Shown: positions 1-53,300 of the stretch, one piece after another
How the letters are laid out: each line of letters begins with the position of its first letter
How positions within the stretch are numbered: position 1 is the stretch's first letter
DNA from: Lama guanicoe
Taxonomy: Eukaryota
Direction of reading: 5' to 3'
Assembly (NCBI GenBank): GCA_013239625.1
Contig: MU053334.1
Span: forward strand, 507,190 to 571,189
DNA: 64,000 nt
The notes under the pieces: generated by a model
The model's input: the letters and a program-made list of their open reading frames with translations, nothing else
The model's database searches: none
What the model was told of the DNA's origin: nothing
Made by a program: the position numbers and the translations under genes

Positions 1-206
1 GCCCAGGACACCTCTCCGCTGCAGTCGACGTCTTTATTTTAGTAAATCTTTGTTTTGTTCACATGATCAGTGGGTGTCCAGTGCCTGCAGAAAGTGCAGA
101 CAAGCAGGCTGAGCCGGCGGCTGGGCCGTCAGCCCTCCTCTGTAGAGCCCAGGCCTGGGTACGGCCCTGGGGGGCCTGTCCTGACCCCCACTGTGTGCTT
201 CTCCAG

Positions 207-3200
207 GTCATCGTGGTCAAGGCCAGCGGGGAGGTGTTTGTGAACCAGATCTACACCCAGCTGCCCGTCTCCGCAGGTGAGCCCGCCTGCCCTGGTCACC
301 CCTCGAGGGTCTGGCCCCTCGCACCCCGCTGACACCTGGTCCTGTGTCCGCAGCCAACGTCACGCTCTTCAGACCCTCCACTTTCTTCATCATCGCCCAG
401 ACCCAGCTGGGCCTGCAGCTGGACATCCAGCTGGTGCCCCTCATGCAGGTGTACGTGAGGCTGGCGCCCGAGCTCCGGGGGCAGACCTGCGGTAAGAGGG
501 CCACTGCCCTGGCCACCAGAGCCCGCCCTCCGTGGCTGGGGCACACAGGGGCCTCATACTGCCTTCCCGTCCCCAGGCCTGTGTGGGAACTTCAACCAGA
601 ACCAGGCGGACGACTTCCGGACCATCAGCGGCGTGGTGGAGGGCACAGCCGCCGCCTTCGCCAACACCTGGAAGACCCAGGCCGCCTGCCGCAACGTCAA
701 GAACAGCTTCGAGGACCCCTGCTCCCTCAGCGTGGACAACGGTACGTGTGTCCGCAAGCCCCGCTGGCCCGCCTGGGCCAGAGGTCTGGGTGTGGGCTCT
801 GGCTGTCCACCCCAGCCCGAAGGGGGAGGTTAGGTGGTAAACCAGCAGGCCCGCCAACACGCAGCGACCTGGCCAGGTGGGTCTCGGAGGTGCAGGGTGC
901 TGGGGGGTCGGGGAGTGAGGCCCACCCCCCCCGTGCCTGCCACCAGGCTGGGGGCGCTCGGGAAGGAGCCTCAGAGCTGCTCACGCCTGGCCTAGTGCTT
1001 TAGATGGACCACCAGGGACGCGGGGTGAAAGGAAGTCTGCTCACCCGCAGGGAGCGCCCGTCTAACACGACTGTCCAGCCCCGCTGACCGTCCCTCCTCC
1101 TCTGTCCACAGAGAAATACGCTCAGCACTGGTGCTCGCAGCTGACCGACCCCCACGGCCCCTTCGCCCGGTGCCACGCCTCTGTGAACCCCAGCACTTAC
1201 TACTCGGTAATGCCACTCACCTGCCCCCTCCCTGGGCCATGCGGCCACCCTCAGGGTCCCCAGGGCTGTGGCAGCAGGGTCTGGGCTATTTGGTCTCTCT
1301 GGCTCTGTTCCCCCCACCCCCATTCACTCACTCACTCGCTGGCTCACGGCGAGGCTCCTGCAGCCGGCCTGAGGGTCCCCCAGAGAGCGCATAGCCCACC
1401 GGCCCGGGGCGTAAGTGAGAAACCAGTGGCAGCTGCGATGTTCTTGTGTCCGAGGCTGAACATAGAGGGCCGGACCGTTGGGTCACAGAGATGAGGGGCC
1501 CGGGTCCTCCCAGCACCTCTGCCCAGCAGGGGGCTTGGCTCCAAGACGCGCTGTGCGATTTCTGCAGAGGGACGTTCAGGGAGGGGTCCTGGAGAGGCAG
1601 GAGCTCCGGCAGATCAGGGGCTGCTCACCCTTGGGGGGCTGGGCTCCCTGACGTCCCGACCCCCTGACATCCCCGCAGAACTGCATGTTCGACACGTGCA
1701 ACTGTGAGAAGAGTGAGGACTGCATGTGCGCCGCCCTTTCCTCCTACGTGCGGGCCTGCGCCGCCAAGGGCGTGCTGCTGAGCGGCTGGCGGGACGGCGT
1801 GTGCAGTGAGTGCGCGGGGAGCGGGGCGGGCCCTGCAGTGGATGCTCCAGGGGCCCCTGTCCTCACAGTCAAGCTCACAGTCCACGGAGCGCCCAGGCCA
1901 GGGTCCCCAGGACTCCAGCTAGGACCATGGGCCTGGCGGGGACAGGGGAGCCAGGGTCCTGGGCGATGGCCGCTGGCTCTGTCCTGAGTGCTGCCTCTTC
2001 CTGGCATTCTGCAGCAAAGCCCACAGCCACCTGTCCCGAGTCGATGACCTACCACTACCACATCAGCACCTGCCAGCCCACCTGCCGGGCCCGGAGCGAC
2101 GAGGACGTCACCTGCAGCATCAGCTTCGTCCCTGTGGACGGCTGTACCTGCCCCCATGAAACCTTCCTGGACGACACGGGCAAGTGTGTGCCGGCCACCA
2201 GCTGTCCCTGCTACCACGGGGGCTCCATGGTTCCCAACGGGGAGTCGCTGCATGAGAGCGGGGTCATCTGGTAAGAGCCCCTGCCGAGCGGGTGGGGTGG
2301 GCCAGCTGGGGAGGCCCTCTGACCGCCCTCTCCTTGCAGCTCCTGCACCCAGGGCACGCTGGCCTGCATCGGAGGCTACTCCCCGGCTCCAGGTGAGCCC
2401 AGGGGTGCGGGGGAGGGGCTCTTGGTGACCTGCACGTGAAGCTATGGTCCGTGGGGGGTGTGGGGGCTTAGATGCCCCCAAGTCAGCGAGGCTGGTGGGC
2501 ATTGGCCCGCGTCTCTGCCGCGCCTGGTCTGTGCCCTCTGGGCTCCACAAGAGCGCGCACAGCACGGCAGCACACGCACACGCCAGCCCCAGGGCGGCAG
2601 CCACCACCGTCAGGAGACACGCCCCTCAGAGCCAGCCCGGTGGTCCCCTGATGCCCCCTCCCTCCCCAGCCTGTGCCTCCCCCATGATCTACTCGGACTG
2701 CCGCAACGCCACGCCCGGGGCCGCAGGGGCCGGCTGTCAGAAGAGCTGCCACACGCTGGACATGGACTGTGTAAGTGCCCCGATGACCCCACACCTGCTC
2801 GGGCCTCGTGGGCTCCTGTGAAGAGGCCCACCAGGTGGGCCCTAAGAGGACCCTGCCTGAAGCTGCCGGGCCCGCTGTCCCTGTGGCCCCCCCCCGCCCC
2901 CCGCCCCCCCCGGCCCACCGAGTGGAGTCCGCCCCGCACCCCAGTGCGTGCCCGGCTGCGTGTGTCCCAACGGGCTGGTGGCCGACGGCGAAGGCGGCTG
3001 CATCCCTGCGTCCGACTGCCCCTGCGTGCACAACGAAGCCAGCTACCAGGCCGGCCAGACCATCCGGGTGGGCTGCAACACCTGGTACGCCTGGGGGCTC
3101 AGAGCCCAACCTGGGGGGCAGGCCCCTGGAGCCTCAGGGAGGGAGGCTTTGGCCTGATGAGCGCCCCATCCCTCCCCAGCACCTGTAAGAGCAGGATGTG

Positions 3201-6200
3201 GCAGTGCACGGACGAGCCCTGCCTGGCCACCTGCGCCGTGTATGGGGACGGCCACTATCTCACCTTCGATGGGCAGCGCTACAGCTTCAGCGGGGACTGC
3301 GCATACACGCTGGCCCAGGTACGGTGCGCGGTCAGACCCTCCTAGACACCCCCCACCCTGCCCCTGGCCTCGCCCCTGGGACAGCCCTCCTCCCCCCACA
3401 CAGGACCACTGCGGCGGGAACGGCAGTGCTCAGGACGGCTTCCGTGTCGTCACTGAGAACATCCCCTGTGGCACTACGGGGACCACCTGCTCCAAGGCCA
3501 TCAAAGTCTTCCTGGGGGTGAGTGGGGCCCGGGGGGAGCCCCTGGGAAGGCTGTACTCCCAAGACAGGGGCCGTGGGGCCACGAGCCGACTCGGAAGGTG
3601 GCAGGGTCCTCGTCCAGAGCCTCACTGGCCCTGCCCCGCACAGAGCTACGAGCTGAAGCTGAGTGACGGCAAAGCGGAGGTGATCGAGAAGGACCCGGGG
3701 CAGCAGCCGCCCTTCTCCATCCGCCAGATGGGCATCTACCTGGTGGTGGACACGGAGGTCGGCCTGGTGCTGTTGTGGGACAAGAGGACCAGCATCTTCC
3801 TCATACTCAGCCCCGAGTTCAAGGTGGGCCCCCTGGGAGGCCGCCGCCCTCACCCCAGGCCCAGGGTCGGCTGGGAGCAGGGGTGCAGTGGGGGAGAGAC
3901 AGACGGAAAGACAGAGGCAGAGAGGGAGGCAGACAGACAGGGAGGGACAGAGCGGCAGCAGGAGCCGCCACACACTGCCGGCCCCCTGCTCTCACAGCTC
4001 TGGACACCGGAAGTCCAGTCAAGGTGTCCTGGGGCCGCATTCCCTCCCAAGGCTCTGGGGGAGGGTTCCTCCCGCCTCCTCCAGCTCCCGCGGCCCCGGT
4101 CACCCCGTCACCCCAACCTCTGCCTCCGGGTACTGTCTTCACTCTGTCTGTGTCCACATGTCCCCTGTCCTTTAGGGGTGCAGGCACCGGCCCAGCCGCC
4201 CCAGCGCAGGGCGCCCTCCTCTCAGCTCGCTCTCGCCCGCAGAGACGCTCTTCCCTCGCGGGGCCGCGCTCCTGGGTGTCGGGTCAGGACCCGAGCCCGG
4301 CTCGGGGGGACAGCTCGTAGCCCACTTTGCTGTCTCCCCCGTGCGCTCGCCTCCAGAGAGACTTGGGCGCCCGGTGGGGCTGCTCTGGGGGAGCTGTGGG
4401 CCCCGTGGATGGGGGTGAATGGGGTCACAGGGCCCTGAGCCTGAGCCCTCGTCTCTGCATCCACAGGGGAGGGTCTGCGGGCTGTGCGGGAACTTTGATG
4501 ACAACGCCCTCAATGACCTCACCACGCGGAGCCAGTCCGTGGTGGGCGACGTGCTGGAGTTTGGCAACAGCTGGAAGTTCTCCCCGTCCTGCCCGGACGC
4601 CCAGGACCCCGAGGACCCCTGCACGGCCAATCCGTACCGCAAGTCCTGGGCCCAGAAGCAGTGCAGCATCATCAGCGGGGACGCCTTCAGCGCCTGCCAT
4701 GCCCACGTACGTGGGGCGCTCCTCCGGGCCCCTGGGGAGGAAGGGACAGGGTGGGGGCCCAGCGGCTCCTCGCCACCCTCCGGGGCCACCTGTCTGGCCG
4801 GCCACGTGGGACCTGAGCTCCAGGGAAATTGGCCCAGGCCGACACCAAGCCACGCCAGTCCCCGAGAGCCATGGGGAGGGCGGGCCTGGCGCCTGAAGCC
4901 TCTTCTCCGCAGGTGGAGCCGGCCAGGTACTACGAGGCCTGCGTGAGCGACGCCTGCGCCTGTGACTCTGGGGGCGACTGCGAGTGCTTCTGCACGGCCG
5001 TGGCCGCCTACGCCCGGGCCTGCCACGAAGCGGGCGTGTGCGTGTCCTGGCGGACCCCGGACGTCTGCCGTGAGTGCCCACGGACGCGTCCATCAGGGCA
5101 GGACGGGGACACAGGCAGTGACGAGAACTGTGTTGAATGCGGGAGGGGTGGGAGGGCTTGAAGGGGATCCGCCGAGCTCCCCCAACCCTGCGGAGCCGGG
5201 CGGAGGGGGCGGAGCTGGGGGCAGCTCCGGCTGAAGTCCCCCGCCTCAAGGTGCCGCGTCCCTGAGAAGCCCGCTGACCACGCTCCTTGCCGCCCCCTGT
5301 GGCCCGCAGACCCCCGCCCCCGAGGCCACGTCCACAGGCACAGGGGAGGGATGCGTCTTTAGAACGGCTCGTGGTCAAGGATTGGGACACGGGGAGCCCC
5401 CAGGCTGTCCTCCAAGGGCGGCACTCGCGCCTGGCCCTGAGCCCCCTGCCCCCTCCCCGCAGCTCTCTTCTGCGACTACTACAACCCCCAGGGCCAGTGC
5501 GAGTGGCACTACCTTCCCTGCGGCGCCCCCTGCCTGAAGACCTGCCGGAACCCCAGCGGCCAGTGCCTGCACAGCGTGCACGGCCTGGAAGGTGGGCTGC
5601 TGCCCTGCTGGCTGGGAGGGGCGGCCCAGGGGCCCGGGGGGCGGGGTCTGTCCTGGGGGTCCTCTGACCCCCCGTGGTGCCTGTGCAGCTGTAGCCTTGA
5701 GCCCCCCGCAGCGTCGTGGGCGACGTCCAGGGCTGGGGACTGAGTGGAGGTGGGAGGTGGGGGATCAGGTGATGTGCAGTTCGTCTGGCTGGGACTCAGG
5801 CCTCTCTGGCCCACAGGCTGCTACCCCAAGTGCCCACCAGAGGCCCCCATCTTTGACGAGGACCAGATGCAGTGTGTGGCGTCCTGCCCGACCCCACCCC
5901 CACCGCCGCCCTGCCGCGTCCAGGGCAAGTCCTACCGGCCTGGCTCAGCCGTGCCCTCGGATGAGAACTGCCACTCCTGGTGAGTCCTTGGCTGGAGTTG
6001 AGAGGAGCCTGGAGCACGTGGGGGGTTCTCCCGGCCCCCTGCCATTGGGGAAAGGCCCCACCAGCCACCTCCCAGGAGAGCCTCCTCCCTTGAGGGCCGG
6101 GAGGAGCCCTCCAGCCTGGGTTTGCTGTGGACCCCACAGTGGGGTCCACCGAGGAGCTTCCTTGCTGCAGGATGAGGCTGGGGGACCTGTGGGGTGAAGG

Positions 6201-9200: not shown

Positions 9201-12200
9201 GCCCCCCCTCGGCTCCGACGACCAGCACGACCTCCGAGCGGACCACCGGCCCCCCCTCCGCTCCGACGACCAGCACGACCTCCGCGCGGACCACCGGCCC
9301 CCCCTCGGCTCCGACGACCAGCACGACCTCCGAGCGGACCACCGGCCCCCCCTCCGCTCCGACGACCAGCACGACCTCCGCGCGGACCACCGGCCCCCCC
9401 TCGGCTCCGACGACCAGCACGACCTCCGAGCGGACCACCGGCCCCCCCTCCGCTCCGACGACCAGCACGACCTCCGCGCGGACCACCGGCCCCCCCTCGG
9501 CTCCGACGACCAGCACGACCTCCGAGCGGACCACCGGCCCCCCCTCCGCTCCGACGACCAGCACGACCTCCGCGCGGACCACCGGCCCCCCCTCGGCTCC
9601 GACGACCAGCACGACCTCCGAGCGGACCACCGGCCCCCCCTCCGCTCCGACGACCAGCACGACCTCCGCGCGGACCACCGGCCCCCCCTCGGCTCCGACG
9701 ACCAGCACGACCTCCGAGCGGACCACCGGCCCCCCCTCCGCTCCGACGACCAGCACGACCTCCGCGCGGACCACCGGCCCCCCCTCGGCTCCGACGACCA
9801 GCACGACCTCCGAGCGGACCACCGGCCCCCCCTCCGCTCCGACGACCAGCACGACCTCCGCGCGGACCACCGGCCCCCCCTCGGCTCCGACGACCAGCAC
9901 GACCTCCGAGCGGACCACCGGCCCCCCCTCCGCTCCGACGACCAGCACGACCTCCGCGCGGACCACCGGCCCCCCCTCGGCTCCGACGACCAGCACGACC
10001 TCCGAGCGGACCACCGGCCCCCCCTCCGCTCCGACGACCAGCACGACCTCCGCGCGGACCACCGGCCCCCCCTCGGCTCCGACGACCAGCACGACCTCCG
10101 AGCGGACCACCGGCCCCCCCTCCGCTCCGACGACCAGCACGACCTCCGCGCGGACCACCGGCCCCCCCTCGGCTCCGACGACCAGCACGACCTCCGAGCG
10201 GACCACCGGCCCCCCCTCCGCTCCGACGACCAGCACGACCTCTGCACGGACCACCGGCCCTCCCTCCGCTCCGACGACCAGCACGACCCCTGTCCCTACA
10301 CCTGGGACTCCCTACTCCACATCCGGGGCCACCACCTGCCTGCCACAGTGCGCGTGGACCAAGTGGTTCGATGTGGACGTCCCATCCCCTGGGCCCGATG
10401 GAGGAGACTCTGAAACCTACAGCAACATCACCAGAAGAGGAGAGAAGATCTGCCACCGACCCGAGCACATCGCCCAACTGGAGTGCCGAGCGGAGAGCCA
10501 CCCGGAAGTCAGCATCGCCGCGCTGGGCCAGGTGGTGCAGTGCAACCCCAAAGTGGGCCTGGTGTGCCGGAACCGGGACCAGAGCAGCCCGTTCACGACG
10601 TGCTTCAACTACCAGATCCGAGTGCTGTGCTGTGAGCCCCCGAAAGGCTGCCCTGTCCCTTCTGTGACCCCCTTTGTGACTTTATCCAAGACTCCTCTGT
10701 CCCCAGAGTCCACCACCACGGTGTCCTCAGTGACACCGCCCAGCTCCACGGAGCCCTCCACCACAACGTGCTACTGCAGCGTGTCCGGCAATTTCTACCC
10801 TGCGGGTACGTGGCTCCTGCCCACGGTGTCTGGTGTGTGCTGACCCTGCTGGCTGCTGTCCTGTTCTCAGAGCTACTGTGTGAGGGGAGGGGGGGAGGGG
10901 TCCCCTGTTCTGTGACCGGGCCTGGGGCTGTGGACAGGGTCAGAAGTAGCTGTCACTGAGGATATGCCCTTCGTATCTGAGTAAAGGCCACCTGCCGGGC
11001 CAGCCACCGAGCTGACCACCAGCCCGAGCCCCTCCTGCTGGGTCCCCTGCTCTGCCTGGACCACCTGTCCCTTTGTCCTGCAGGGTCCATCATTTACCAG
11101 CAGACCGACCTCTCCGGCCACTGCTATTACGCCGTGTGCAGTCTGGACTGCCATGTGGTCAGGCGGACTGACCACACCTGTCCCACCAGCACTCCATCTC
11201 TTGCCCCGACCACCTCCCCACCCCGGTCCTCCCCGTCTACGTCGGTGCCTCCGGAGGGATGCCCAAATGCAGTGCCCCCAAGGACGGTAATCCCACCTTT
11301 CCTGCCGCGCCTGGGCCCAGGGGCGCATGCGGGGACCCCCCGCGTCTTCCCCATTAGGCCGTGGCACCACGTGTGCGTGGAGGTCGGTGCCTCCCGGACC
11401 GAGTCAGGCTGCCCATGGGGAGAGGCCGTTTCTGGTCGCCCAGAACTTCTGGAATGGGATGCCAGGGCGTGGGGTCCAGGGTTCAGACTCTGCTTTCTGA
11501 CAAGGGGGCCAGAGCAGGCAGGGGGTGCTCTGGGCAGGGTCGACAGCCAAGGAGCGGAGTCCGGGTAGTCTGCACGTGGGGAGCAGGTTGCAACTGGGCA
11601 GAGTGGGGAGGGGGCAACCTGCACCCACTCAGAGACCCTCCCTCCAGTGGTGACGCGGAGGGAACAGTCGGTGGGGGGTGCCGGTCCCAGCCCCGGTGTC
11701 CCTGCTGGCCTCTCTCTCCGGGGAGGCCCAGGCCAGCTCTGAGCCCTGAGGGTCGGCGCCGGGTCGGGAGCGAGGCCCTGCAGCTGTCCTTCCTCCGCAG
11801 GAAGGCGAGACCTGGGCCATGCCCAACTGCTCTCAGGCCACCTGCAAGGGCAATGGGGTCATCACTGTGAGGCCGCGCCAGTGCCCAGCGGTGAAGAAGC
11901 TGACCTGCGCCAACGGCTACCCCCCCGTGAGCGTGGCTGACGACGAGGGCTGCTGCTTAAGCCACTACGAGTGCCAATGTGAGCCCGGCGGGCGGGCGGG
12001 CAGAGAAGGGGGCTCCGCTAAGGCGGGACAGGATCTCGGGCCCGGGAAGGACTCCCCAGCATCGGGGCAGAGGTCACGGTGCCCGGCCTCCTCCCGGGGT
12101 GCCCAGCGGAACCCTGCCCGAGCCCAGAGCCCCCGGGGCCGCGCGGGGTGGGTGAAGAGGGAGGGAGTCTGGTCCCGCCCCTCGGGCCGCGCTTGCACCT

Positions 12201-35379: not shown

Positions 35380-38300
35380 ATGGGCGCCCCGAGTGGGTGC
35401 CGAGCGCCAGTGTGGGCCCTCGCGGCCCTGCTCTTGGTGCAGAAGGCAGGTAAGGTGGAAGCCCCTCACTCCACCTCTGCAGTGGGGGTGGCCTCCACAG
35501 ACCACCCGCCTGAGTTTCTCCTGCCCGTGATGGACGTGGGCCCCCCTTGGGGCCCTGCATCGCATCCCGGACACCCAGCCCCTGGGTGCTCAGCCTGTGC
35601 TGGGAGAAGTTGGGTCCCCTGGGGCAACCGAGGGTCTTGGCCTCGGTTGGGACGGAGCAGGCACTGGGTGAGGAGCCTAGGCTGGGGGTCTCTCTGGTCC
35701 CCGAGAGGCAGCCACAGCAGGGTGGGCAGGGACAGCACAGTCGCCCGGCCAGCCGGGGGCTGCACCTTCTGCTCTAGGCCCTCTGAGGCCGGCCTGGGGG
35801 AACAGCCATCAGGGCGGCTCTGAAACGCCTCCGGAGTAAGGCTGGAATGGGGCAGACAGCGAAGGGCCCCACCCAGGAGCAGGGACCATCTGAACACACT
35901 CTGTTCCTGGGGCCACACCTGCCCCGCGGCCTTTCTCGCCCGCCGTCCCGCTGGCCAGCGGCACCCCGCGGCCCGGGGAAGCACCTTGAGCCCTGACGCT
36001 TACTGTCAACACGCAAGGTGCTGTCCCTGGGCTGCCGCCCACACCCGGGGAGCTGGCCTGCAGCCCGGGCCTTCAGAGGCCACCCACAGTCCGCTCCTGC
36101 AGGCCCTCCAGGCGCCTCACCTGAGCTGAGTTCTGGGCAGGTGGGGCCAGCCTGAGGCTCCCTTTACCTGTGAAAGTGAGGGGATGAAGCGGGAGGGTTG
36201 TCTCCCAAAACCCCTGCCCCAGGCCCCCTTTCTCAGGGGAGTGAGCAGGGCTCGTGGGGGCTTTCCCCTAGCAGCTCCTGGCTGGGGGTCCCTGCACTGA
36301 GGCAGTTCCTGTGGAAACAGGGCCCTTCGGGAGAAGAGACCCTGCCCGCCTGAAACCCCGTGGTTTCTCGACCGTGGGGTGGGGCCGACAGCTGCGGAGC
36401 AGCTGTGCTTCTGGGAACTGCAGGCAAGCAGGGCCCTGGGGAGGGGAGACAAACGCGGCTGGCCCCGTGGTTTCCAAGTGTCGGCGTCCCGGCTGGAAAA
36501 GTCGAAGAGAGCAGAGCCCACTGTGACCGCTACAGAGATGGGCACAGCACCCATCGCCGGCCCCACCAGGGACACGGGCACCTCTGGGGCTTCACCTCCC
36601 GCTCCCCACGAAGCACAGGCTTGGGCTGAGCGTGGAGATACGCCCCCACTGCAGACATGAGGAAAGAATTCTGAGACCATGTGAACGGGGGCACCCCAGG
36701 CTTAGCCTGGTGGAGAGGGGCCTGGAGAGGCGCTCAGGCCTGTCCACTGAGGCAGCGGGACACTGGAGAGGTGCGCCTGGTGGATGAGGCCCTGCCAGGA
36801 GGTGGGGGGCACACAGGTGGCCTCTGGGGACCGTGCCAGCACCAGGGCCTCCAGGCCTCCCGCGTGCCTTGGAGGGTGATTCTAGGCGGAGCTGCTGTGT
36901 CTTGGGTTTCTGCTAAGTCACTCTGGGGATCCTCCCCAACTGTGTGCGTCTTTGTCCCCAACAAAGTGAGCCTTTGTCCTTTTCCGAGGGCCGTGTGGGA
37001 AGGGGTCGAACATTCTCCCTGGGGTGGCCTGGGTCAACGAGACCAACAGTGTTTCCCAATTTCAGTCCCCTGCTCTGAGCCACAGTGAGATGGGGTGTAG
37101 ATGGGGAGGGTGGGGTCAGCTCCCCACGGGACCTGCCATCCCGACAGCAGGGTCCACGTGGCTGCCATCCTGCGGGCCACGGACACCCCTGAGCCACTGA
37201 GGGAGGGGTGGCCAACGTCTGGCTGCTCATGGCCTCCCACTCCCTTTTCCCGCAGAGACCTGGCACAGCCTGGAGCAGAGCGTAGACAGAGCCGAGCCTG
37301 TCGTGTACAGCCCGCGGGTGCACGGGGGTATGGCCCAGGCTGGGGGAGGAAGGGCCCTGGGAGCCGAGCAGGGGTGGGGGGCAGACCCCTTCGCATGTCA
37401 GCTACACAGGGACCACCCCTGGATTCCACGGGAGGGGACAGTGGACGGGGCCAAAGAACACAAAGGCACAGAGCAAAGAGGCTCAAATGCTCACACGCGC
37501 TCACGCACGTGATCACACACGTTCACACCCACACGCTTGTGCTTGTGTTTGCCCATCACTCTCTCTCACATGTGCACACTCACACATTCAGGAACACACT
37601 CATACAGGGCCCCAGTCACACGTATGCACACCACATACACAATCAGGGTAACACGGACCTGGGAAGGGCTGTGTCCAGGGTGGACAGGAAGGGTCCCAGA
37701 GGGGACAGCGTTAGCCCTGGGGCTCCCTGGGCAGGGTCAGGGCTGGCCTGCAGCTCCCTGCGGCACCAGGGTGGCCAGTGAGGAGGACAGGGGTCTGGGG
37801 AAGGGGTGTCCCGGCTGGTCCTTGCCTGGCCACATCCCTGGTGTGACCGGGCCCTCACTCCGCAGCCCAGCGCGTGGCCTTCCTCATACCCATCGCTGTC
37901 TTCCCCACCATGAGCTGTAAGTGGACGCCAGGGCAGGGGTGCTCACAGCCCGGGGGGGTAAAGCTGGCATGGGGGTGGGGCAGCCAGCAGCTGGACGGCT
38001 CTGAGCATGGCTGGGAGCCTTCTCGGTGGGTAGCTCTCCTGGTGGCTGACCCCAGGTGCTGTGGCAGGGGGCAGGGCCGTTGGGGTCTCGGGAAGAATTA
38101 GGAACAGGGGGAGCGAGGAGGGGCGCAGGGGCTCCCCGCCCCCAACCCGGGGGCTTCGTCCCAGGGAAGGCTGCCCTCTCCTGACCCTGCGCTCCCCGCA
38201 GCCCTGAATGCGGCGCACAGTGGGCGGGTGTGCAGCACCTGGGGCGACTCCCACTACAAGACCTTCGACGGCCACCTCTTCCGCTTCCCCGGCCTGTGCA

Positions 38301-41300
38301 ACTACGTCTTCTCCGCGCACTGCGGGGCCGCTTACGAGGACTTCAACATCCAGCTCCGCCGTGGCCTCGTGGGCTCCAGGCCCATCATCACCCACATCGT
38401 CCTCAGGACGCAGGGGCTGGTGCTGGAGATCGCCAACGGCTCTGTCCTCATCGACGGGCGGCGGTGAGCCCAGCTCCGGGGCGCAGAGGGGCCTGGGCTC
38501 CGGGCGGCTCGGGGCGGGGCGGGCGCCAGACCTGAGGGGGGATCGGAACTCTCTGCCCCAGGGAGGAGCTGCCCTACAGCCGCCCCGGCCTCCTGGTGGA
38601 GGGGAGTCACGTGGACGTGAAGATCAGCCTCCGGCTGGGGCTGACCTTCCTGTGGAACAGAGAAGACAGTGCCCTGGTGAGGGTGCCACCCATGCCTTCC
38701 CCTCCCGGCTTGGGGAGCTCCGCAGGGGCGGGGTCGGAGGGGGCTGGGGGCCCTGCCAGGCCAGCAGAGGCTGGAGCTGCCCCTCCCCTGCCCCCAGCTG
38801 GAGCTGGACCCCAAGTATGCCAACAAGACATGTGGCCTGTGCGGGGACTTCAACGGGCTCCCAACCATCAGCGAGTTCCACACCCACAGTGAGTGCGCTG
38901 CACACAGCAGCCCGCCTCGGGCCAGACCGGCCCAGGAGGCCGGGGGGTGCAGGCTGAGGGCCTCGTGCTGGGCAGTGGACAGGGGGCAAGTCGGGGGTGG
39001 CAATACTCAATCCGGCGATGCCCCGGGGCACGGGCAGGGAGCCCCTCGGTGCCCCCTGCATGGACTGCCTCCTCTCTGCAGACACTAGGCTGACCCCGCT
39101 ACAGTTTGGGAACCTGCAGAAGCTGGATGGGCCCACAGAGCAGTGCCAGGACCCCCTGCCCTCCCCGGCTGACAACTGCACTGATGAAGTGAGTGCCTCT
39201 CCAGGGGCCCTGCCTGCCTGACGCCCCTGCAAGCACAGACCATGCCCCACATAGTCCCACCGAGAGTGGGGCACTCAGCAAGCCTGGGGCAGAAGCCTTC
39301 CCGATGAGCGGGGAGGATCCCACCTTAAGAAGTGGACTTGAACTCCAGGATCCCCGAAACCACCAGAACCCACAAGCTTAAATAAGGACGCGGAGCCGGT
39401 CGGGGCGGGGGCTGAAGGCCACTGGCTGAGCACGGAGGACACCTCTGCCTCCCCCTCCTCCGAGCTGCCTCCAAGGGCGAGGTCTGCTCCTTTTCTGGGT
39501 GCTCACACAATGGGCAGGTGTGTCCTGGAGCCCTGGCGGGGTGTGGGGAGTCCAGGGCTGTGGTCACTCCTCAGAGCCAAGCAGAGCTCTGAACCCAGCA
39601 GTGGTGAGTTCATGGTGGTTGAGGAGAAGGATGGGTGGACGGCTGGCTGGCTGGCTGGAGGGACGGGTGGATGGATATATGGATGGACAGAGGGATGGAA
39701 GGGTAGATGGTGGATAGATGGACGGATGAGTCGGTGGATGGATGGAAGGACGGAACCTCAAGGAGAGGAGGGGGCTTCCTGGCCTGGGTAAAGCCTGCAG
39801 GGCTGGGGTCCCCACAACATCCCGCATGGAGGGCAGAGGGTGCCCAGTCTCTGTCTCCCCAGGAGGGCCTCTGCCGCGGGACCCTGCTGGGCCCGGCTTT
39901 CGCTCAGTGCAACAGGCTGCTGGATGTCGAGCTGTACGTGGCCGCCTGCACCCAGGACCTGTGCCGCTGCCCTGCCTGCCCCTGCGCCACCTTTGCCGAG
40001 TACTCCCGCCAGTGCGCCCATGCCGGGGGGCAGCCGCAGAACTGGAGGGGCCCCGACCTCTGCCGTGAGTGTCCCCCTGCACTGGGGGCCAGCCCCGGGC
40101 CCTGCACCCACACTGGGTCTCTGGGGAGAGCGTGAGGGAAGTGACCCTGCGCAGGACACCTGGCTTCTGGCTGGGGGTCCAGGACAGGTGGAGCCACCCT
40201 GGGAGCAAGAGGATGGGCAGTGGGGCAGAGGGGAGTGTGCGAGGCTGCTGCCTTGGAGGGCCCAGAGGGGCACCTGGCCTGGGCACCGCCAGCTTGCTCA
40301 CCCCCAGGACCCAGGTGGGTGCAGGGGGGCTGTCCCTGCAAACACTGGGCCCCGCGCTCTCCTCACCGCCCGCCTCACCCAGAAGACTGCTAGATGGTAC
40401 GAGAGGCGCTCATTTTGGGGACCGTCGGTGACACATGGAATGCAGCAGCAGAGGTGGGCCCGCCACCCACATGGCTTCCTGGGGCTAAGTGCTGCCTCCT
40501 CCCTGCAGCCCAGACGTGCCCCCTGAACATGCAGCACCAGGAGTGCGGCTCGCCCTGCATGGACACCTGCTCCAACCCCGAGCACTCCCAGCATTGCGAG
40601 GACCACTGCGTCGACGGCTGCTTCTGCCCCCCAGGCAGGTTCTCCGGGCTCTCGGGGACTGTCCACAACCTGGGCCTTTGCCCTCATCCCTGGGGCTGCC
40701 TCTGGTCACTGTCTTTCCACCTCCCCACCCCAACCTCAGCTGACTGGCTCGTGTCCCCCCCCACCGCTCCCCAGGCACCGTGCTGGATGATGTCACCCAC
40801 ACAGGCTGCCTGCCCCTGCAGCAGTGCCCCTGCACCCACAGCGGCCACACCTATGCCCCGGGGGACTCCTACACCACCAGCTGCAGCTCCTGGTAGCTCC
40901 CCTGCCGGCCCTGCCTGAGGGGTGGGGATGCCCGGGGTGGGGTTTGCCCCCTCACCACGACCTCTGTCCCGACCTCCCCTACCCAGCACCTGCTCCGGGG
41001 GACTATGGCAGTGCCAGAAACTCCCGTGCCCGGGCACCTGCTCTGTCCAGGGCGGGTCGCACATCTCCACCTACGACGAGAAACTCTATGACATCCATGG
41101 GGACTGCAGCTACGTCCTGACCAAGGTGAGCCCCTCCAGGGACCCTGCGTCCTTGGCCCAGGGAGGGCCCCAGCATGGCCATCAGAGCCGTGAAGCCCCC
41201 TGGGGTCCATTCCGAGAGGGAGGCCCCAGGGCTCACATTCATGGGGGACCGAGGGACTCTCAGGCTCCGAGACGGCTGCCCAGAGGCAACCGCAGGTACC

Positions 41301-44300
41301 AGCGCCAGCTCACCCTGCCTGCCCACACTCGGCCCTCCCTGCCTGGGTTGGGGGCTGGCCGACCCCAGTACATAGGTGGGCTCTGCCTTGTTCAGAAATG
41401 TGCGGACAACACCCTCACGGTGCTGGCTGAGCTGCGGAGATGTGGCCTGACCGACAATGAGAACTGCCTCAAAACGGTGACGCTGAGCATGCACGGAGGG
41501 GACACGGTGAGTGTCCCAGGCTGGGGGGACCGGGGGGGAGACAGGCCCCAGGGGCAGCAGCCATCCCTGGGGTGGGGGAGGCTGGCCCCTGCCCAGTGCT
41601 CCCTCAGTGGGCCGACAGGCTCTTGCCCACGCTGACCACAGCCCCACCTCCTCCCACTAGGCCATCCGGATCCAGGCCAACGGTGCTGTGTTCATGAACT
41701 CCATCTACACCCAGCTGCCTGTGTCAGCGGGTACGTGGCTCCTGCCGCTTGGGGCCAGCCGGGTCCCTCGCTAGTTCCTTGCTAGCTCAGAAGGTTCCAG
41801 AACATCCACTCCCAGGGCTGGTTTCTCACCTGCAAGGTGGGGGTGTCAGGGGCCTCCCCTGGGGCCCTGTGGGGACCCTGTATGGAGCACGCTTGGTGCC
41901 CAGCCTCTCGGGGGCGTCAGTGGTCGTGGCCCCAGGAGCACATGCGAGCTTCCGCATGGCTCCCAGGCCCCGGAGGGGTGGCGGGGGTCCACCGGGCGCC
42001 CTTCAGCAGTGGCCATCCCAGGAGCCCGCTGCTAAGGCCAGGCGGTCAGCGTGGCCGGGCTCTGACTGCGCCCTCCCCCACCCCACCCGCAGCCAACATT
42101 ACCATCTTCAGACCCTCGTCCTTCTTCATCCTGGTGCAGACGGGCCTCGGGCTGCAGGCGCAGGTGCAGCTGGTGCCCCTCATGCAGGTGTTCCTCAGGC
42201 TGGACCCCTCCTACCACGGCCAGATGTGCGGTGAGGCTCAGTGGAGGGTGTGGGAGGAGCAGTGGGGCGGGGCAGGGGGTGGGCAATCGGGCAGGAGAAG
42301 GGGACCCCCGCCCCACACCAGCCGCCACGGAGGGGGCGGTGGGCTGGGAGGATGGAGAGCAGGCTGCCCTCGCTCAGCGGGCTTCGCAGGGCGCTCCCTC
42401 CCCATGCCCCAGGGCTCAGCTGCAGGCACTTCAGCAACTGGTCCTGAGACGGGGCTCGCCCACCTTGCGGTGGTGCCTGTAGGACCTGCGGGGCCGGGGC
42501 ACTCAGGCTGGGCTGGGTGGGCCACTGATGCCCACCCCCCACCTCCCACCCCCAGGCCTGTGTGGGAACTTCAACCAGAACCAGGCGGACGACTTCCGGA
42601 CCATCAGCGGCGTGGTGGAGGGCACAGCCGCCGCCTTCGCCAACACCTGGAAGACCCAGGCCGCCTGCCGCAACGTCAAGAACAGCTTCGAGGACCCCTG
42701 CTCCCTCAGCGTGGACAACGGTACCCTGCCCTGGGGGCCCTTGGGTCTCCATGGGGCCAGGCCTGGGGGTTGCCCTTCTGTGCAGGAGGCTCTGCGCAGC
42801 TGGGGCCGGGGGTGAGCAGGAAGGGCGCAGGGGGCCCGAGGGGCTGTGAGCCCGTCTCGAGGAAGGTGTCCTGCTGCCGGCCAGCCCCAAGCTCCAGTTC
42901 AGTTTCCCGGGCGGAGGGGCCCCCGCAGACCTGTGTGGGCCAAGCAGAGGCTAGGTGGGTGGGCAGGCGCAGAGGGGGACATGTGGGAAGGAAGCCAGTG
43001 ACCCTGAGCTGTGCCTGGTGACAGCCACCCCCCAACCCCCGCAGAGAACTATGCCCGGCACTGGTGCTCCCTGCTGACCAGCCCTGCCGGGGCCTTCTCA
43101 CCCTGCCACGCCATCGTCAACCCTGCGCCCTTCCACTCGGTGAGAGCCCTGGCCCGCCCCCAGAGTGGGGTGGGGTGCTGGGGGCAGCATCTGCCCCTGG
43201 AGCTGCCCCCCAGGCCCCCCTCAGGCTCCTGCTCTCAGGCACCGCCCACACCTCCGTGGCCAGTGGGTCCCACTCTAGGCCTGCTCTGGGGTCTTCGCAT
43301 GGTCCCTGCTGGTGTGTTCCTTGCCTGGGTGACCTGTAACGAAGGACCACAGACTGGGGCTGAAAGCTGGAGCCATCTACCCTGCCCCCTACCCCAGTCC
43401 TGGAGACGAGATTTAAAATCTAGGTCCTGGCAGGATGTCCTAGAGGATCCTTCCTGTCTCTCCAGCTTCTGGGGCCGCGAGGCTGCCTCTCGCCAGCCTC
43501 TGCCGCGTCTTCACGTGGCCTCCGGGTTTGCCTGGGTCCCAATTCTTTCTCACAGGGACACCAGGCCCACCCTAGTGACCCCTCTTGACTTCATCACCCC
43601 TGCAAATGCCCCATTTCCAGCAGGGCCACCGCCACAGGCCCCGGGGTCACGATATGGACACGTCTTTTGGGGTGACAGAACGTCACCCGCTGCAGTTGGC
43701 TAACAGGTCACTTTTCTGGGAGCCAGAGCCCTAAAGCGCACCCGACCCCAGCCCCCAGGGGCTGGGTCCACAGGTGGAGACGCAGGCCCACCTCAGCCCA
43801 TTTTGAGGGTGACACACCCTCCTGTCGGCCCCTCCCCACCCTGGCCACGCCCCACATGCAGCACAGCTCGTGACGGGCCTAGGATTCAAGCTGGACCCCG
43901 TCCTGGTCCTGCAGAGACCCCTCTCCTTGGCCCCATCCTCAGCCCCTCCCGACCCCTCAGAGCAGTGTGTCCCTCCCGTGGCTCCACGTCAAGCTCGGGG
44001 CTGCCCTACGGGAGGCCCCGCCCACCTGCTTGCTGGCCCAGGCCAGGGCACCCAGAAGGATGGACGGGGAGAGAAAGGCCGCTGGGGGGCTGGGCTCCCT
44101 GACGTCCCGACCCCCTGACATCCCCGCAGAACTGCATGTTCGATACGTGCAACTGTGAGAAGAGTGAGGACTGCATGTGCGCTGCTCTGTCCTCCTACGT
44201 GCGGGCCTGCGCCGCCAAGGGCGTGCTGCTGAGCGGCTGGCGGGACGGCGCGTGCAGTAAGTGTGCCCTGAGTGTGCCCAGGCGGGGGCGGGGGTTCTGG

Positions 44301-47300: not shown

Positions 47301-50300
47301 CAGAACTATGAGCTGGTCCTCCACGAGGGCACCTACAAGGTGCTGCAGAGGGCGCCAGGTGGGCACCAGCCCTTCAAGATCCGTTACATGGGCCTCTACC
47401 TGGCCATCGAGACCCGCAGCGGCATGATCCTGTCCTGGGACCGGAAGACAAGCGTGTTCATCAGGCTGAACCAGGATTACAAGGTGGGGGGCGGACAGAG
47501 CTCTCACCCCTAGACCTAGGCCTTCGGGGTCCCCCTGGCAGTTGGGTGTCTGCTGAGGGCTGGGGGAGGCCATGCACAGGGCAGGTCCCCAAAGGGGCGT
47601 GTGAAGACCAGACCTACCGGTGGGCGCGAAGCACTCTTGGCTGCCTGGTCTCTGCACTCAGCCGCTCCACGCCAGCTGGGCTGAGGTCTCCAGGGGGGCA
47701 GGTGACTGTGCCTCTGGTGGCCACCCACCTGCCGGCATACCTTCCTGTCCACCTGCCCCCTGCCTGTCCCCCTGCTGACCTGTCTCCCTTCCTGTGCACC
47801 TGCCCACCTCCCTTCCTGCCCATTGCAGGACTGCCTGTGCACCTCATCTTCCTGATAGTTCACTGGGGGAACCAGGTACCCTGCAGTCACCCCTTCTGGG
47901 CCAGGCTCTGTGCTCGGGCCACCTGTATAGCCCCCATGCCCCCATCTCTGCGTCCACAGGGGAGGGTCTGCGGGCTGTGCGGGAACTTTGATGACAACGC
48001 CCTCAACGACCTCACCACGCGGAGCCAGTCCGTGGTGGGCGACGTGCTGGAGTTTGGCAACAGCTGGAAGTTCTCCCCGTCCTGCCCGGACGCCCAGGAC
48101 CCCGAGGACCCCTGCACGGCCAATCCGTACCGCAAGTCCTGGGCCCAGAAGCAGTGCAGCATCATCAGCGGGGACGCCTTCAGCGCCTGCCGTTCTCAGG
48201 TGAAGCAGGAGGGGGAGGGGCCTGGCTGGGGAATGGCGGGGGCTGCCCCCTCCTCTCCTGGCAGGACCTGGGTTTGGCCCTGTTTTTACCCTAACCGTTA
48301 CACATGATCAGCACCTCCCACTAGGCAGGCGCCCATATCCCCAGTCCTGCAGAGAGCCCCCCACTGCTTTCCCTGACCACACTAAGCCATTTCCCCAGAA
48401 ACGGGCTGTGAGCCACACAGTGTCACCAGTGTCACCCCCTCGCCTCCCTTCTTCCCACCTCCCTGATTTACCAGCCCCCAGCACTAATGGAAGCCTCAGG
48501 GGGCCCTCCAGCCCAGCCGGGCCTCATGGGAGCAGAAGACAGTGATGTCCTTGGACACTCTTCCCCAAAGCCCTTCCTGTTACCTAACAAGGACTGCAGT
48601 GCCCACCTGTGAGCAGGGTCTCATGACCTGGGACCCGCATAGGGATGAGGAGGGCGGCTTGGCAGGAAGTCTGCAGCTGACGCTGGTGGTCACGTGAGGC
48701 CCCAGGTGTCCTGCCCTTTGGCTCAGAAAGTCCTTTGTGAACCTGACATAGTGGTCCCTTCCCCAGATGGTGTCATCCATGGTGGCAAACTCAAGACATG
48801 GGTGCCCTGGGCTCTGTCGCCTGGGAGGGACGGGGCGTCCCCTCACCCTGAGGAGACAGCACCTCATTTGTCAGGACAGAGTCACAACAGGGTCACGGGG
48901 AGGGCTGGCTTGCAGTTGCATGAGGCGTCAAACGGGTGAGGGACCAGGGGCAGGTGCCTAGGTGGGCACGTCTCCAGTGGCAGGTGAGGTCGAAGTGCAA
49001 ACAGGGAGCCGGCTGCCCCTGACACGGGGGGTGGCCCTTCTCACCAACCCCCCCCCCACCTGCCACCCCCAGGTCGACTCCACCAGGTACTATGAGGCCT
49101 GTGTGAGCGACGCCTGCGCCTGTGACTCTGGGGGCGACTGTGAGTGCTTCTGCACGGCTGTGGCCGCCTACGCCCGGGCCTGCCACGAAGCGGGCGTGTG
49201 CGTGTCCTGGCGGACCCCGGACATCTGCCGTGAGTCAGGCTCTGTCCGTGGTGGCGGGAGGAGGTGCAGCCACACCTGCTCTGGGGCCTGATGGGCACGT
49301 ATGCACGCACACGGACATCAGACACACATGTGATACACACGTGTGCACGTGTCCCCGTGCGTAGAAATCAGACAGGTCACCCCCAGACGGGATGGCTTAG
49401 TTGGGGACAGTTCTGAGTGCAGAGCTGAGAAATGAAACTGGAATTCGGGGGGTGGGCTCTGGAGCCCACTCGACTCTGGGATGAACCCAGGGATGAGACC
49501 CGGGCAGGCGCCCACGAGCCTCTCCTCCCCACCCAGCCTTGTTCTGTGACTACTACAACCCGCACGGGGAGTGTGAGTGGCACTACGAGCCTTGTGGGGC
49601 CCCCTGCCTGAGGACCTGCCGGAACCCCAGTGGGCAGTGCTCCATGGACCTGCCGGGCCTGGAAGGTGAGGCGCAGGCTGCTCCGGGGAAGCCACACCTT
49701 GCCACCCCAGGACAGAGTACAGGCAAGGGGGAGAGGGGCTCCTGCCTCCCGCATACCCACCTGGAGACCCGCAGGCAGAGGCGGGCTGCCGGCGGGGCAG
49801 CACTGGACACCTGGCCTGAGAAGGCGTCTTCTCCTCGCCCTGTGCCCGCACCAGGCTGCTACCCGAAGTGCCCGCCCAGCAAGCCATTCTTCAACGAGGA
49901 CGAGATGAAGTGCGTGGCCCAGTGCGCCTGCTACGACGAGCATGGAAACCACTACGATGTGGGCATGAGGGTCCCCACTGCGGAGAACTACCAGAGCTGG
50001 TGAGGAAGCTGGGGTGGGGGCGTGGTCTGGGTGGTGTGGGGTCTGGGTGGTGGTGGGGTCTGGGNNNNNNNNNNNNNNNNNNNNNNNNNNNNNNNNNNNN
50101 NNNNNNNNNNNNNNNNNNNNNNNNNNNNNNNNNNNNNNNTCTGGGCGGGGTGGGGCGGGGCCGGGAAGGCAGGGCTACTGGCCTGGTCCCCAATGGCCTT
50201 TTCTTCTCCCAGTGTCTGCACCTTCCGAGGCCTCCAGTGCACACACAGCCTGGCGGGTAAGGAGGGCCCTGTTTGTTTGGGGGCTGGGAGCTGGGGGCTC

Positions 50301-53300
50301 CGAGTGAACCCTGAACCTGTCCATCTCCAGACTGCAAGTGCACCTACCAGAACACGACCTACAACTACGGGGACGTCATCTACAACACGACTGACGGGCT
50401 GGGCGCCTGCTTGATTGCTGTCTGTGGAGACAATGGGACGATCACCCGGGAAGCCGTGAGGTGTCCTGGAACCCCGTCCACGACACCCTTCACCTAGACC
50501 AGCATCACCTCCACCCCCACCCCCATCACNNNNNNNNNNNNNNNNNNNNNNNNNNNNNNNNNNNNNNNNNNNNNNNNNNNNNNNNNNNNNNNNNNNNNNN
50601 NNNNNNNNNNNNNNNNNNNNNNNNNNNNNNNNNNNNNNNNNNNNNNNNNNNNNNNNNNNNNNNNNNNNNNNNNNNNNNNNNNNNNNNNNNNNNNNNNNNN
50701 NNNNNNNNNNNNNNNNNNNNNNNNNNNNNNNNNNNNNNNNNNNNNNNNNNNNNNNNNNNNNNNNNNNNNNNNNNNNNNNNNNNNNNNNNNNNNNNNNNNN
50801 NNNNNNNNNNNNNNNNNNNNNNNNNNNNNNNNNNNNNNNNNNNNNNNNNNNNNNNNNNNNNNNNNNNNNNNNNNNNNNNNNNNNNNNNNNNNNNNNNNNN
50901 NNNNNNNNNNNNNNNNNNNNNNNNNNNNNNNNNNNNNNNNNNNNNNNNNNNNNNNNNNNNNNNNNNNNNNNNNNNNNNNNNNNNNNNNNNNNNNNNNNNN
51001 NNNNNNNNNNNNNNNNNNNNNNNNNNNNNNNNNNNNNNNNNNNNNNNNNNNNNNNNNNNNNNNNNNNNNNNNNNNNNNNNNNNNNNNNNNNNNNNNNNNN
51101 NNNNNNNNNNNNNNNNNNNNNNNNNNNNNNNNNNNNNNNNNNNNNNNNNNNNNNNNNNNNNNNNNNNNNNNNNNNNNNNNNNNNNNNNNNNNNNNNNNNN
51201 NNNNNNNNNNNNNNNNNNNNNNNNNNNNNNNNNNNNNNNNNNNNNNNNNNNNNNNNNNNNNNNNNNNCTCCACCCCCATCAGCTTCACCTCCACACACCC
51301 CCCCACCTCTACCACCACCACCACCATCACTGCCACCCCTACCCCTAGCCACAGTCAGGGCACAACCAGCTGTCAACCCAAGTGTCAGTGGACAGAATGG
51401 TTCGATGTGGACTTCCCAACCTCGGGGATCCCAGGTGGAGACATGGAGACCTATGAAAATATTAGGGCTGCGGGCGGCAAGATGTGCAGGGAGCCAAAGA
51501 AGATCGAGTGCCGGGCGGAGAGATTCCCCGAGGTGAGCCTGGACCAGCTCGGGCAGGTGGTAACCTGCAGCCTGCAGGCCGGGCTAGTCTGCTGGAATGA
51601 CGACCAGACGGCACCGTTCAACACTTGCTTCAACTACAACATCCGCCTGCTCTGCTGTGACGACATCCGGCACTGCCCCAGCACGGCCACCCCTGGCCTC
51701 AGCTCAGCTCCCAGCCCCACCCACAGCAGCACTGCCACCTGGGGCTCCAGACTGACACTGTCACCACCATCAACCTCAGCCACCACCGAGACCCAGACCA
51801 CCTCCCTCAGGACCTCACTCACGACCACCTGGCTGGCTTCAACCCATGCACCCTCCACAGCCCAAAGTCACACCAGCTCGGGCTCCTCCATGGCCACTTC
51901 CACGGCCACAGTGACCGAGACCTCCTCCCTCCTGACCCCCAGCCCCACGCCGACCCCCGGGTCCACAGCCTGTCAGACGGACTGCACCTGGACGGAGTGG
52001 CTGGACCACAGCTACCCGATGCCAGGAGCCTCCGGCGGGGACTTCGAGACCTATGCTAACATCCGGGCGGCCGGTGGGGCCGTCTGCGAGCAGCCTGTGG
52101 CCATCGAGTGTCGGGCCGAGATGCAGCCGGACGTCAGCGTGGAGCAGCTGGGCCAGGTGGTGCAGTGCACACTGCAAGAGGGCCTGGTGTGCCGGAACCA
52201 GGACCAGAGCGGCCAGTTCAAGATGTGCTTCAACTACCAGATCCGTGTGCGCTGTTGTGACTACAGCCATTGTACCGGCCCTACTGTCACCAAGGCCACC
52301 ACGCTGGCCTCCACAGCCTCCACCCCCAGCAGCAGCATAAGCAAGGGGTCATCGACGGCGACTCCACCCTGGACCACGGCCACCTCCCAGACGCACGTCT
52401 CCTCTCCTGCGACCACCGAGAGGGTCTCTACCACCACCACTGAGTCAAGACCTTCCTCCACGGGCACCACCACCACAGTGACCGAGACCTCCTCCCTCCT
52501 GACCCCCAGCCCCACGCCGACCCCCGGGTCCACAGCCTGTCAGACGGACTGCACCTGGACGGAGTGGCTGGACCACAGCTACCCGATGCCAGGAGCCTCC
52601 GGCGGGGACTTCGAGACCTATGCTAACATCCGGGCGGCCGGTGGGGCCGTCTGCGAGCAGCCTGTGGCCATCGAGTGTCGGGCCGAGATGCAGCCGGACG
52701 TCAGCGTGGAGCAGCTGGGCCAGGTGGTGCAGTGCACACTGCAAGAGGGCCTGGTGTGCCGGAACCAGGACCAGAGCGGCCAGTTCAAGATGTGCTTCAA
52801 CTACCAGATCCGTGTGCGCTGTTGTGACTACAGCCATTGTACCGGCCCTACTGTCACCAAGGCCACCACGCTGGCCTCCACAGCCTCCGCCCCCAGCAGC
52901 AGCATAAGCAAGGGGTCATCGACGGCGACTCCACCCTGGACCACGGCCACCTCCCAGACGCACGTCTCCTCTCCTGCGACCACCGAGAGGGTCTCTACCA
53001 CCACCACTGAGTCAAGACCTTCCTCCACGGGGACCACCGAGGGGGTCTTCACCCCCACCACTGAGACCCATCCCTCTTCCACGGGGACCACCCAGAGGGT
53101 CTCCACTCCCACCACTGAGTCCCGTCTCTCCTCCACGGGGACCACTCAGAGGGTCTCCACCCCCACCACTGAGTCCCGTCTCTCCTCCACGGGGACTACC
53201 GAGGGGGTCTCCACCCCCACCACTGAGACCCATCCCTCCTCCACGGTGACCACCGAGAGGGTCTCCACCCCTACCACTGAGTCAAGTCTCTCCTCCACGG

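Follow-up and report, generated by a model that had tools for sequence, protein, structure and literature searches.

How does one exon come to be identical, base for base, in two neighbouring genes when the exons on either side of it are clearly diverged? The question is raised by a 64,000-nucleotide stretch of the Lama guanicoe genome (assembly GCA_013239625.1, contig MU053334.1, positions 507,190 to 571,189 of the forward strand; hereafter the window, whose own numbering is used throughout), which carries the mucin genes MUC5AC and MUC5B in tandem on the same strand. The exon in question lies at 577-741 in MUC5AC and at 42556-42720 in MUC5B, and the two copies are 41,979 bases apart. It encodes a peptide that begins with LCGNFNQNQ and ends with SLSVDN, spanning the end of the second VWD domain (VWD2) and the linker to the second C8 domain (C8-2). 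A first-pass annotation of the window had attributed the identity to gene conversion. The analysis reported here agrees: column shuffles, silent sites, and trees built from the exchanging exons all favour recurrent short-tract non-allelic gene conversion between the two genes, a reading to which we assign a probability of about 0.85.

Pairwise alignment of the two exon copies found 165 of 165 bases equal, with no synonymous difference in 54 codons. The exact match extends to 175 bases (571-745 and 42550-42724, both on the forward strand) through six intron bases upstream (CCCCAG) and four downstream (GTAC). Mismatches occur directly outside this run, at 569-570 and at every position of 746-751, so intron divergence begins right at its edges, as had been described. 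Of the ten intron bases in common, most belong to the splice consensus (AG, GT, and a stretch of pyrimidines), and they add little weight. Divergence of the flanking exons, both on the forward strand, was also confirmed: the upstream exon (354-491, partner 42093-42230) is identical at 100 of 138 bases (72%; 64% in protein) and clusters by orthology, and the downstream exon (1112-1206, partner 43045-43139) at 66 of 95 (69%; 58% in protein). When every exon pair that BLAST could match between the two genes was aligned (3251 columns), the background identity outside the high-identity tracts was 76.1%. In 10000 shuffles of these columns the longest identical run had a mean of 36.5 and a maximum of 88 bases, and a run of 175 was never reached. 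The 175-base identity is not due to chance.

The whole assembly (2.05 Gb in 55,231 contigs) contains the exon at high identity only at these two loci, plus one copy at 74%. This third copy (locus L003, G000:C650:429824-429996) lies ~77 kb upstream of the window and has no sign of joining the exchange. It presumably belongs to the next gel-forming mucin gene upstream, as the counterpart of this D2 exon; we take that gene to be MUC2 from the usual order of these genes.

The identical exon is one of several high-identity tracts between the two genes. Four exons (577-741, 1679-1805, 4467-4706, and 4913-5069) are referred to here as hot, and the diverged exons interleaved between them as cold. The second tract (1632-1815, partner 44083-44266, forward strand) covers the C8-2 core exon at 1679-1805; 177 of its 184 bases match, and the 47 intron bases at 1632-1678 are identical. 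The third (4452-4698, partner 47945-48191, forward strand) covers most of exon 4467-4706, which encodes the end of VWD3 and its linker, and has two mismatches; it begins in the intron, 15 bases before the exon, and ends ahead of the last 8 exon bases, which are diverged. The fourth (approximately 4923-5075, partner 49083-49235, forward strand) lies in the C8-3 exon at 4913-5069, has five mismatches, and leaves out the first 10 exon bases, which are diverged. Three further tracts in the D1 region, at 93.6%, 90.4%, and 87% identity, have their MUC5AC side upstream of the window. The 93.6% tract is found on the MUC5B side at 38195-38366 (172 bases, forward strand; MUC5AC partner G000:C650:503367-503538) and ends in mid-exon, and the 90.4% tract at 40495-40630 (forward strand; partner G000:C650:505704-505839) starts 14 bases inside an intron. 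All remaining exon pairs are 69%-80% identical. At third codon positions the four hot exons (221 codons) are 95.9% identical and seven cold exons (314 codons) 64.0%. In D2-D3 the two genes carry a mosaic of tracts that differ in age, at least four in number, and D1 adds more.

Exon 577-741 had been described as the most recent tract, and this did not survive the comparison because an exact match of 184 bases, which is longer, lies within the D3 tract (4515-4698, equal to 48008-48191); the two tracts are not rankable by age. The earlier suggestion that conversion was bounded by where homology exists is right in part. It fits exon 577-741, but other tracts have ends that disregard exon borders: 15-47 intron bases are included in the D3 and C8-2 tracts, and the 3' end of the D3 tract and the 5' end of the C8-3 tract stop 8-10 bases inside their exons.

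Several details of the tracts were recorded alongside these boundaries. Although the bulk of both exons is homogenised, three codons at the end of the D3 exon and four at the start of the next differ between MUC5AC and MUC5B. These codons (4699-4706 and 4913-4922; partners 48192-48199 and 49073-49082) are paralogue-specific in nearly all mammals compared: in MUC5AC the D3 exon ends in C-H-x-H and the next begins with V-E-P-A, and in MUC5B the corresponding residues are C-R-S-Q and V-D-S-T. All five differences in the C8-3 tract (4933, 4942, 4981, 4999, and 5063; partners within 49093-49223) are CpG in MUC5AC versus TpG or CpA in MUC5B. Three of the five differences in the C8-2 exon are C in MUC5AC versus T in MUC5B, and the other two are reversed. 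Decay after conversion looks one-sided. A signature of GC-biased conversion was sought in third-position GC content, and the values in hot exons (0.94 and 0.92) and cold exons (0.91 and 0.89) were too similar to tell.

Is this exchange peculiar to the guanaco? Cross-species evidence was drawn entirely from predicted gene models at the protein level, with gene names as given by the source records. The proteins numbered 240: a first set of 120 partial proteins and a second set of 120 full-length models obtained by searching longer proteins with the exon region of camel MUC5B. Segments matching eleven exons of the window were cut from each protein, and only those colinear with the exon in question were kept. 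For the first set, one unnamed row was left out of the control tree of cold exons, and six rows with fewer than half of the hot columns filled were left out of the hot-exon tree. For the second set, the 18 species with both paralogues among the 240 proteins were used together with the window, leaving out partnerless proteins and redundant isoforms. Because hot exons are short and conserved, concatenated trees and approximately unbiased (AU) tests were preferred to single-exon trees.

Cold exons group by gene. In the first set (30 rows) MUC5AC and MUC5B form separate clades, each with a starred support of 100, and in the second (38 rows) the control tree has one label change (starred support 99), a value matched by none of 500 shuffles. 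Within these clades the first gene of the window is sister to Camelus MUC5AC (95-99, starred) and the second to Camelus MUC5B (100, starred), which bears out the names given to the two genes at first pass. Hot exons group largely by species. The first-set tree (25 rows) has seven label changes, and the AU test rejects a MUC5AC clade (delta lnL, the difference in log-likelihood, 173.8; p 0.0017). In the second set, paralogues from the same species are sisters in 15 of 19 pairs (11 of them starred), with 18 label changes and rejection of a MUC5AC clade at a delta lnL of 503 (p 1.9e-31); the exceptions are Camelus, Orcinus, and the two perissodactyls. Exon 577-741 on its own gives 13 label changes and an AU p of 0.012, with only two starred branches. 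Across single-exon trees there is one label change for each cold exon and there are six to nine for each hot exon.

Identity between paralogues of the same species follows the same division. Across the 18 species, the four hot exons have median protein identities of 97%, 96%, 99%, and 96% and are completely identical in seven, four, six, and two species, respectively, the first value in each series being that of exon 577-741. Medians for cold exons are 58%-70% in six, with 100% reached in 0 of the 18 species, and 81% in the seventh. Species-specific residues common to both paralogues occur in exon 577-741 in Mustela, Sorex, Phyllostomus, Lycaon, Dasypus, Balaenoptera, Phocoena, and Sus. The protein trees and identities indicate that the four exons encoding the VWD end with linker and the C8 core of D2 and D3 evolve in concert in almost all sampled mammals.

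Two other observations came from the same proteins. The exon that follows C8-3 (5468-5593, partner 49542-49667) is 79% identical between paralogues here and in most species, and 88%-100% identical in six of seven carnivores (74% in Ursus); the set of concerted exons therefore varies between lineages. A MUC5AC-like N-terminal fragment from Camelus ferus (P0012) has a 17-residue internal duplication inside the 577-741 exon, which is absent from MUC5AC of Camelus dromedarius (P0145) and is probably an artefact of assembly or annotation.

Conversion between the tandem genes could produce such a mosaic in the following way. A break in one gene would be repaired with the paralogous exon as template. 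With introns that can no longer be aligned, pairing would be limited to islands of homology around a few exons, the heteroduplex would be restricted to the island, and a tract would reach the edge of homology and not pass it. Each conversion would renew the identity of its island and keep it a good substrate, and exons drifting below roughly 75%-80% identity would drop out of the exchange. Erosion at the edges of an island would leave paralogue-specific codons at exon ends and small remnants of intron identity. The 175 bases are then an upper bound for the last tract in exon 577-741; the exon was probably near-identical already from earlier conversions, and the last event may have been much shorter, erasing the last differences. 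A more tentative reading, which we consider possible but on balance doubtful, is that the mosaic is more than a passive loss of homology: in essentially every therian lineage the same modules would have been held in concert, and the interleaved exons held apart, since before the marsupial-placental split, either by selection or by a conserved feature that initiates recombination. Under selection, both airway mucins would need the same modules, for example as a shared interface for assembly or packaging, and would need the others to be different.

Several points count against the conversion reading and should be weighed with it. The ends of the tract in exon 577-741 fall at exon borders, without the spill-over into introns that makes the neighbouring tracts unambiguous. 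The exon is also short and conserved (~91% between orthologues of different orders), and with its two starred branches the tree of this exon is weak. Support from other species comes only from proteins of predicted models, and the 18 species were selected for having both paralogues among the 240 proteins. The proposed direction of transfer in this lineage, discussed below, rests on two amino-acid sites in neighbouring tracts and none in exon 577-741. The identity itself is read from a scaffold-level draft with runs of N 7 kb downstream of the MUC5B copy, and assembly could in principle have removed a small number of differences between the paralogues.

This last point leads to the rival that is hardest to dismiss, although we still judge it unlikely: that near-identical exons were merged during assembly, by bubble popping or by polishing with cross-mapped reads, or that one copy was pasted at both loci. 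The draft comprises 55,231 contigs, and MUC5B itself is interrupted by N runs at 50065-50139 and 50530-51267. These are the only N runs in the window; no gap or contig end adjoins the identical segment, the 7 kb around each copy are free of N, and each copy runs without a break into introns that are unique and cannot be aligned. Merging would moreover need copies that were already ~97% or more alike, itself a state that requires conversion. Each neighbouring tract retains two to seven differences, which shows that the assembler resolved near-identical paralogous exons, and copies identical in protein occur in seven of 18 other species, many of them with chromosome-scale contigs. Read data were silent on the exon pair: 20 runs from four closely related organisms contain 0.89-0.94 of the words of window positions 1-6000.

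Two further alternatives take the identity to be real and explain it without exchange of genomic DNA. Purifying selection on the protein or the RNA might have kept the copies from ever diverging since the ancient duplication, and the exon does encode a conserved cysteine-rich motif with the high identity between orders already mentioned. Constraint on the protein, however, does not fix all 54 third positions when third-position identity in cold exons is 64%. Nor does constraint account for replacements that are lineage-specific and common to both copies, here and, as species-specific residues, in other species, for paralogues that group by species rather than by gene, or for neighbouring tracts that are identical into the intron; selection alone is very improbable. 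A spliced transcript or cDNA of the paralogue could have served as the template in place of genomic DNA, and the ends of the 577-741 tract within a few bases of both splice sites are what such a template would leave. It is an equally remote prospect, given that the adjacent exons are unconverted (72% and 69%), the introns are retained, and the 15-47 intron bases in neighbouring tracts are not suppliable by a spliced template.

If genomic conversion is the cause, when did it last act on this exon, and in which direction? Comparison with a sister species had been put forward at first pass as a means to both, and gave the date in part. Both window copies carry an arginine in the motif AACRNV that is found in none of the 240 database proteins, and an aspartate in SVDN that among mammals occurs otherwise only in Dasypus MUC5B; no protein among the 240 has both states. 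MUC5AC and MUC5B of Camelus differ from each other at 4 of the 54 exon residues, and neither has the R or the D of the window. Because these two residues are common to both window copies and absent from both Camelus paralogues, the protein comparison places the last homogenisation of exon 577-741 after the split from Camelus. With a mammalian substitution rate of ~2e-9 per site per year, the lack of differences at ~64 near-neutral sites suggests that the last event is younger than ~10 million years, a loose bound. Open reading frames from stop to stop that join the exon to each intron (124 and 110 aa) had no 100% match among first-set matches of 96-2000 aa. A candidate for dating, a single match in metagenomes to a degenerate pattern of the exon 3' end (L007), was set aside as weak (91% over 34 bases, 75% to the next hot exon) and from a distant organism.

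The other part of that comparison, direction, has no polarising site for the last event in exon 577-741. Evidence on direction more generally comes from residues 7-9 of the exon. Among 36 named mammal proteins, S/N-x-Q is kept in MUC5AC of Sus, Equus, Sciurus, Rattus, Cricetulus, Pygathrix, and Sarcophilus, and MUC5B of these seven species has QNQ in nearly all cases, with RNQ or HNQ in two. MUC5AC with QNQ is found in the first set in the window, Camelus, Bos, Cervus, Ailuropoda, Molossus, and Prolemur, and in 14 of the 18 paired species of the second set (RNQ in Balaenoptera). By this motif the MUC5AC copy in the window appears to be of MUC5B type, and the distribution of QNQ points to repeated overwriting of MUC5AC by MUC5B. 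For the guanaco lineage, a K>E change in the D3 tract and an R>K change in the C8-2 tract have the derived state in Camelus MUC5B and in both window genes, and not in Camelus MUC5AC, which is modest evidence for transfer from MUC5B to MUC5AC in these neighbouring tracts.

Conversion between tandem paralogues is textbook biology, and a single tract of this kind is ordinary; its scope across mammals is less expected. Known examples of such interlocus exchange are HBG1/HBG2, RHD/RHCE, and exons of the red and green opsins. Like MUC5AC/MUC5B, these are tandem genes on one strand; their tracts are short, at tens to hundreds of bases, and form a mosaic with diverged segments, and within tracts the paralogues group by species. 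Unlike them, the MUC5AC/MUC5B duplicates predate the marsupial-placental split, and the same few exons still exchange in almost every sampled lineage. Gene conversion also occurs between VWF and its pseudogene VWFP1, in exons for the D-assembly and A1 regions. That pair shares with the mucins both the VWD/C8/TIL organisation of D assemblies and short tracts between diverged copies; it differs in that the two loci are on separate chromosomes, one of them being a pseudogene, and the events are known as disease alleles, whereas MUC5AC and MUC5B are functional neighbours whose exchange is fixed and recurrent.

Reports on other mucins offer partial parallels. Interlocus conversion between MUC4 and MUC20 in humans has been detected with phylogenetic and GENECONV-type methods (PMC13345508). 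It too concerns duplicated copies at a mucin locus, and the passages of that paper on MUC20 describe recent whole-gene copies in human haplotypes, in contrast to the exon-sized exchange between ancient gel-forming paralogues seen here; MUC5AC and MUC5B are not mentioned in its seven passages on gene conversion. Gene conversion is mentioned six times each in two papers on the stickleback spiggin family, which is derived from MUC19 (PMC2180178, PMC4989455). As far as the relevant passages describe them, these are also tandem genes of gel-forming-mucin type but are young, lineage-specific fish duplicates. PMC10983947 contains none of the words "conversion," "paralog," and "concerted." In the full-text literature searched, with older subscription papers on the 11p15 mucins outside its reach, neither conversion nor concerted evolution is reported for the MUC5AC/MUC5B pair, and such a description may already exist.

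For the two main airway mucins the consequence is that in almost every mammal sampled some of their exons stay identical or close to it, interleaved with exons that have diverged independently through therian history. Short reads, probes, primers, and peptide or antibody reagents directed at the hot exons cannot separate MUC5AC from MUC5B. A variant called in these exons may be one that distinguishes the paralogues, or it may have been carried over from the other gene, and mucin gene trees built from whole N-terminal regions blend two histories. The conserved exon mosaic, which rests on protein-level trees, is a more interesting result than the single tract. If selection for concert or conserved initiation of recombination were indeed responsible, MUC5AC/MUC5B would be a natural system in which to study, exon by exon, why some duplicated genes escape concerted evolution and others do not.

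The assignment of genes and domains follows from comparison with camel and other models. In tblastn searches the first gene (which occupies at least the first 17 kb of the window) matches mucin-5AC models and the second mucin-5B models, with per-exon identities to Camelus of 96%-100%, values that suggest a camelid outside that genus. As matched to camel MUC5B, the second gene extends from 35380 to 60917 on the forward strand, with exon 1 at 35380-35454 and the central exon from ~50 kb, and the match runs past 60.9 kb. Exon 577-741 aligns to residues 493-546 of camel MUC5B, which take in the last part of the second VWD stretch (357-510) and the approach to C8 (553-617); this supports the D2 label given at first pass. 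Pfam identified VWD, C8, TIL, and Mucin2_WxxW domains in the orthologues P0007 and P0013, and C8, VWD-end, and TIL in the window's own exons. By Pfam, the hot exons correspond to the VWD end with linker and to the C8 core, in D2 and D3 both, and the one cold exon tested to TIL.

The order MUC5AC then MUC5B on one strand is seen directly; of the central exon, which N runs interrupt, only CysD matches give a glimpse. In MUC5B the start of this exon is interrupted by the two runs given above (75 and 738 bases), and the central repeat region is probably incompletely assembled. CysD-like units occur within 51506-52827 at intervals of ~567-600 bases; those at 51506, 52106, and 52673 match a MUC5AC unit at 10481-10635 with 72%-82% identity.

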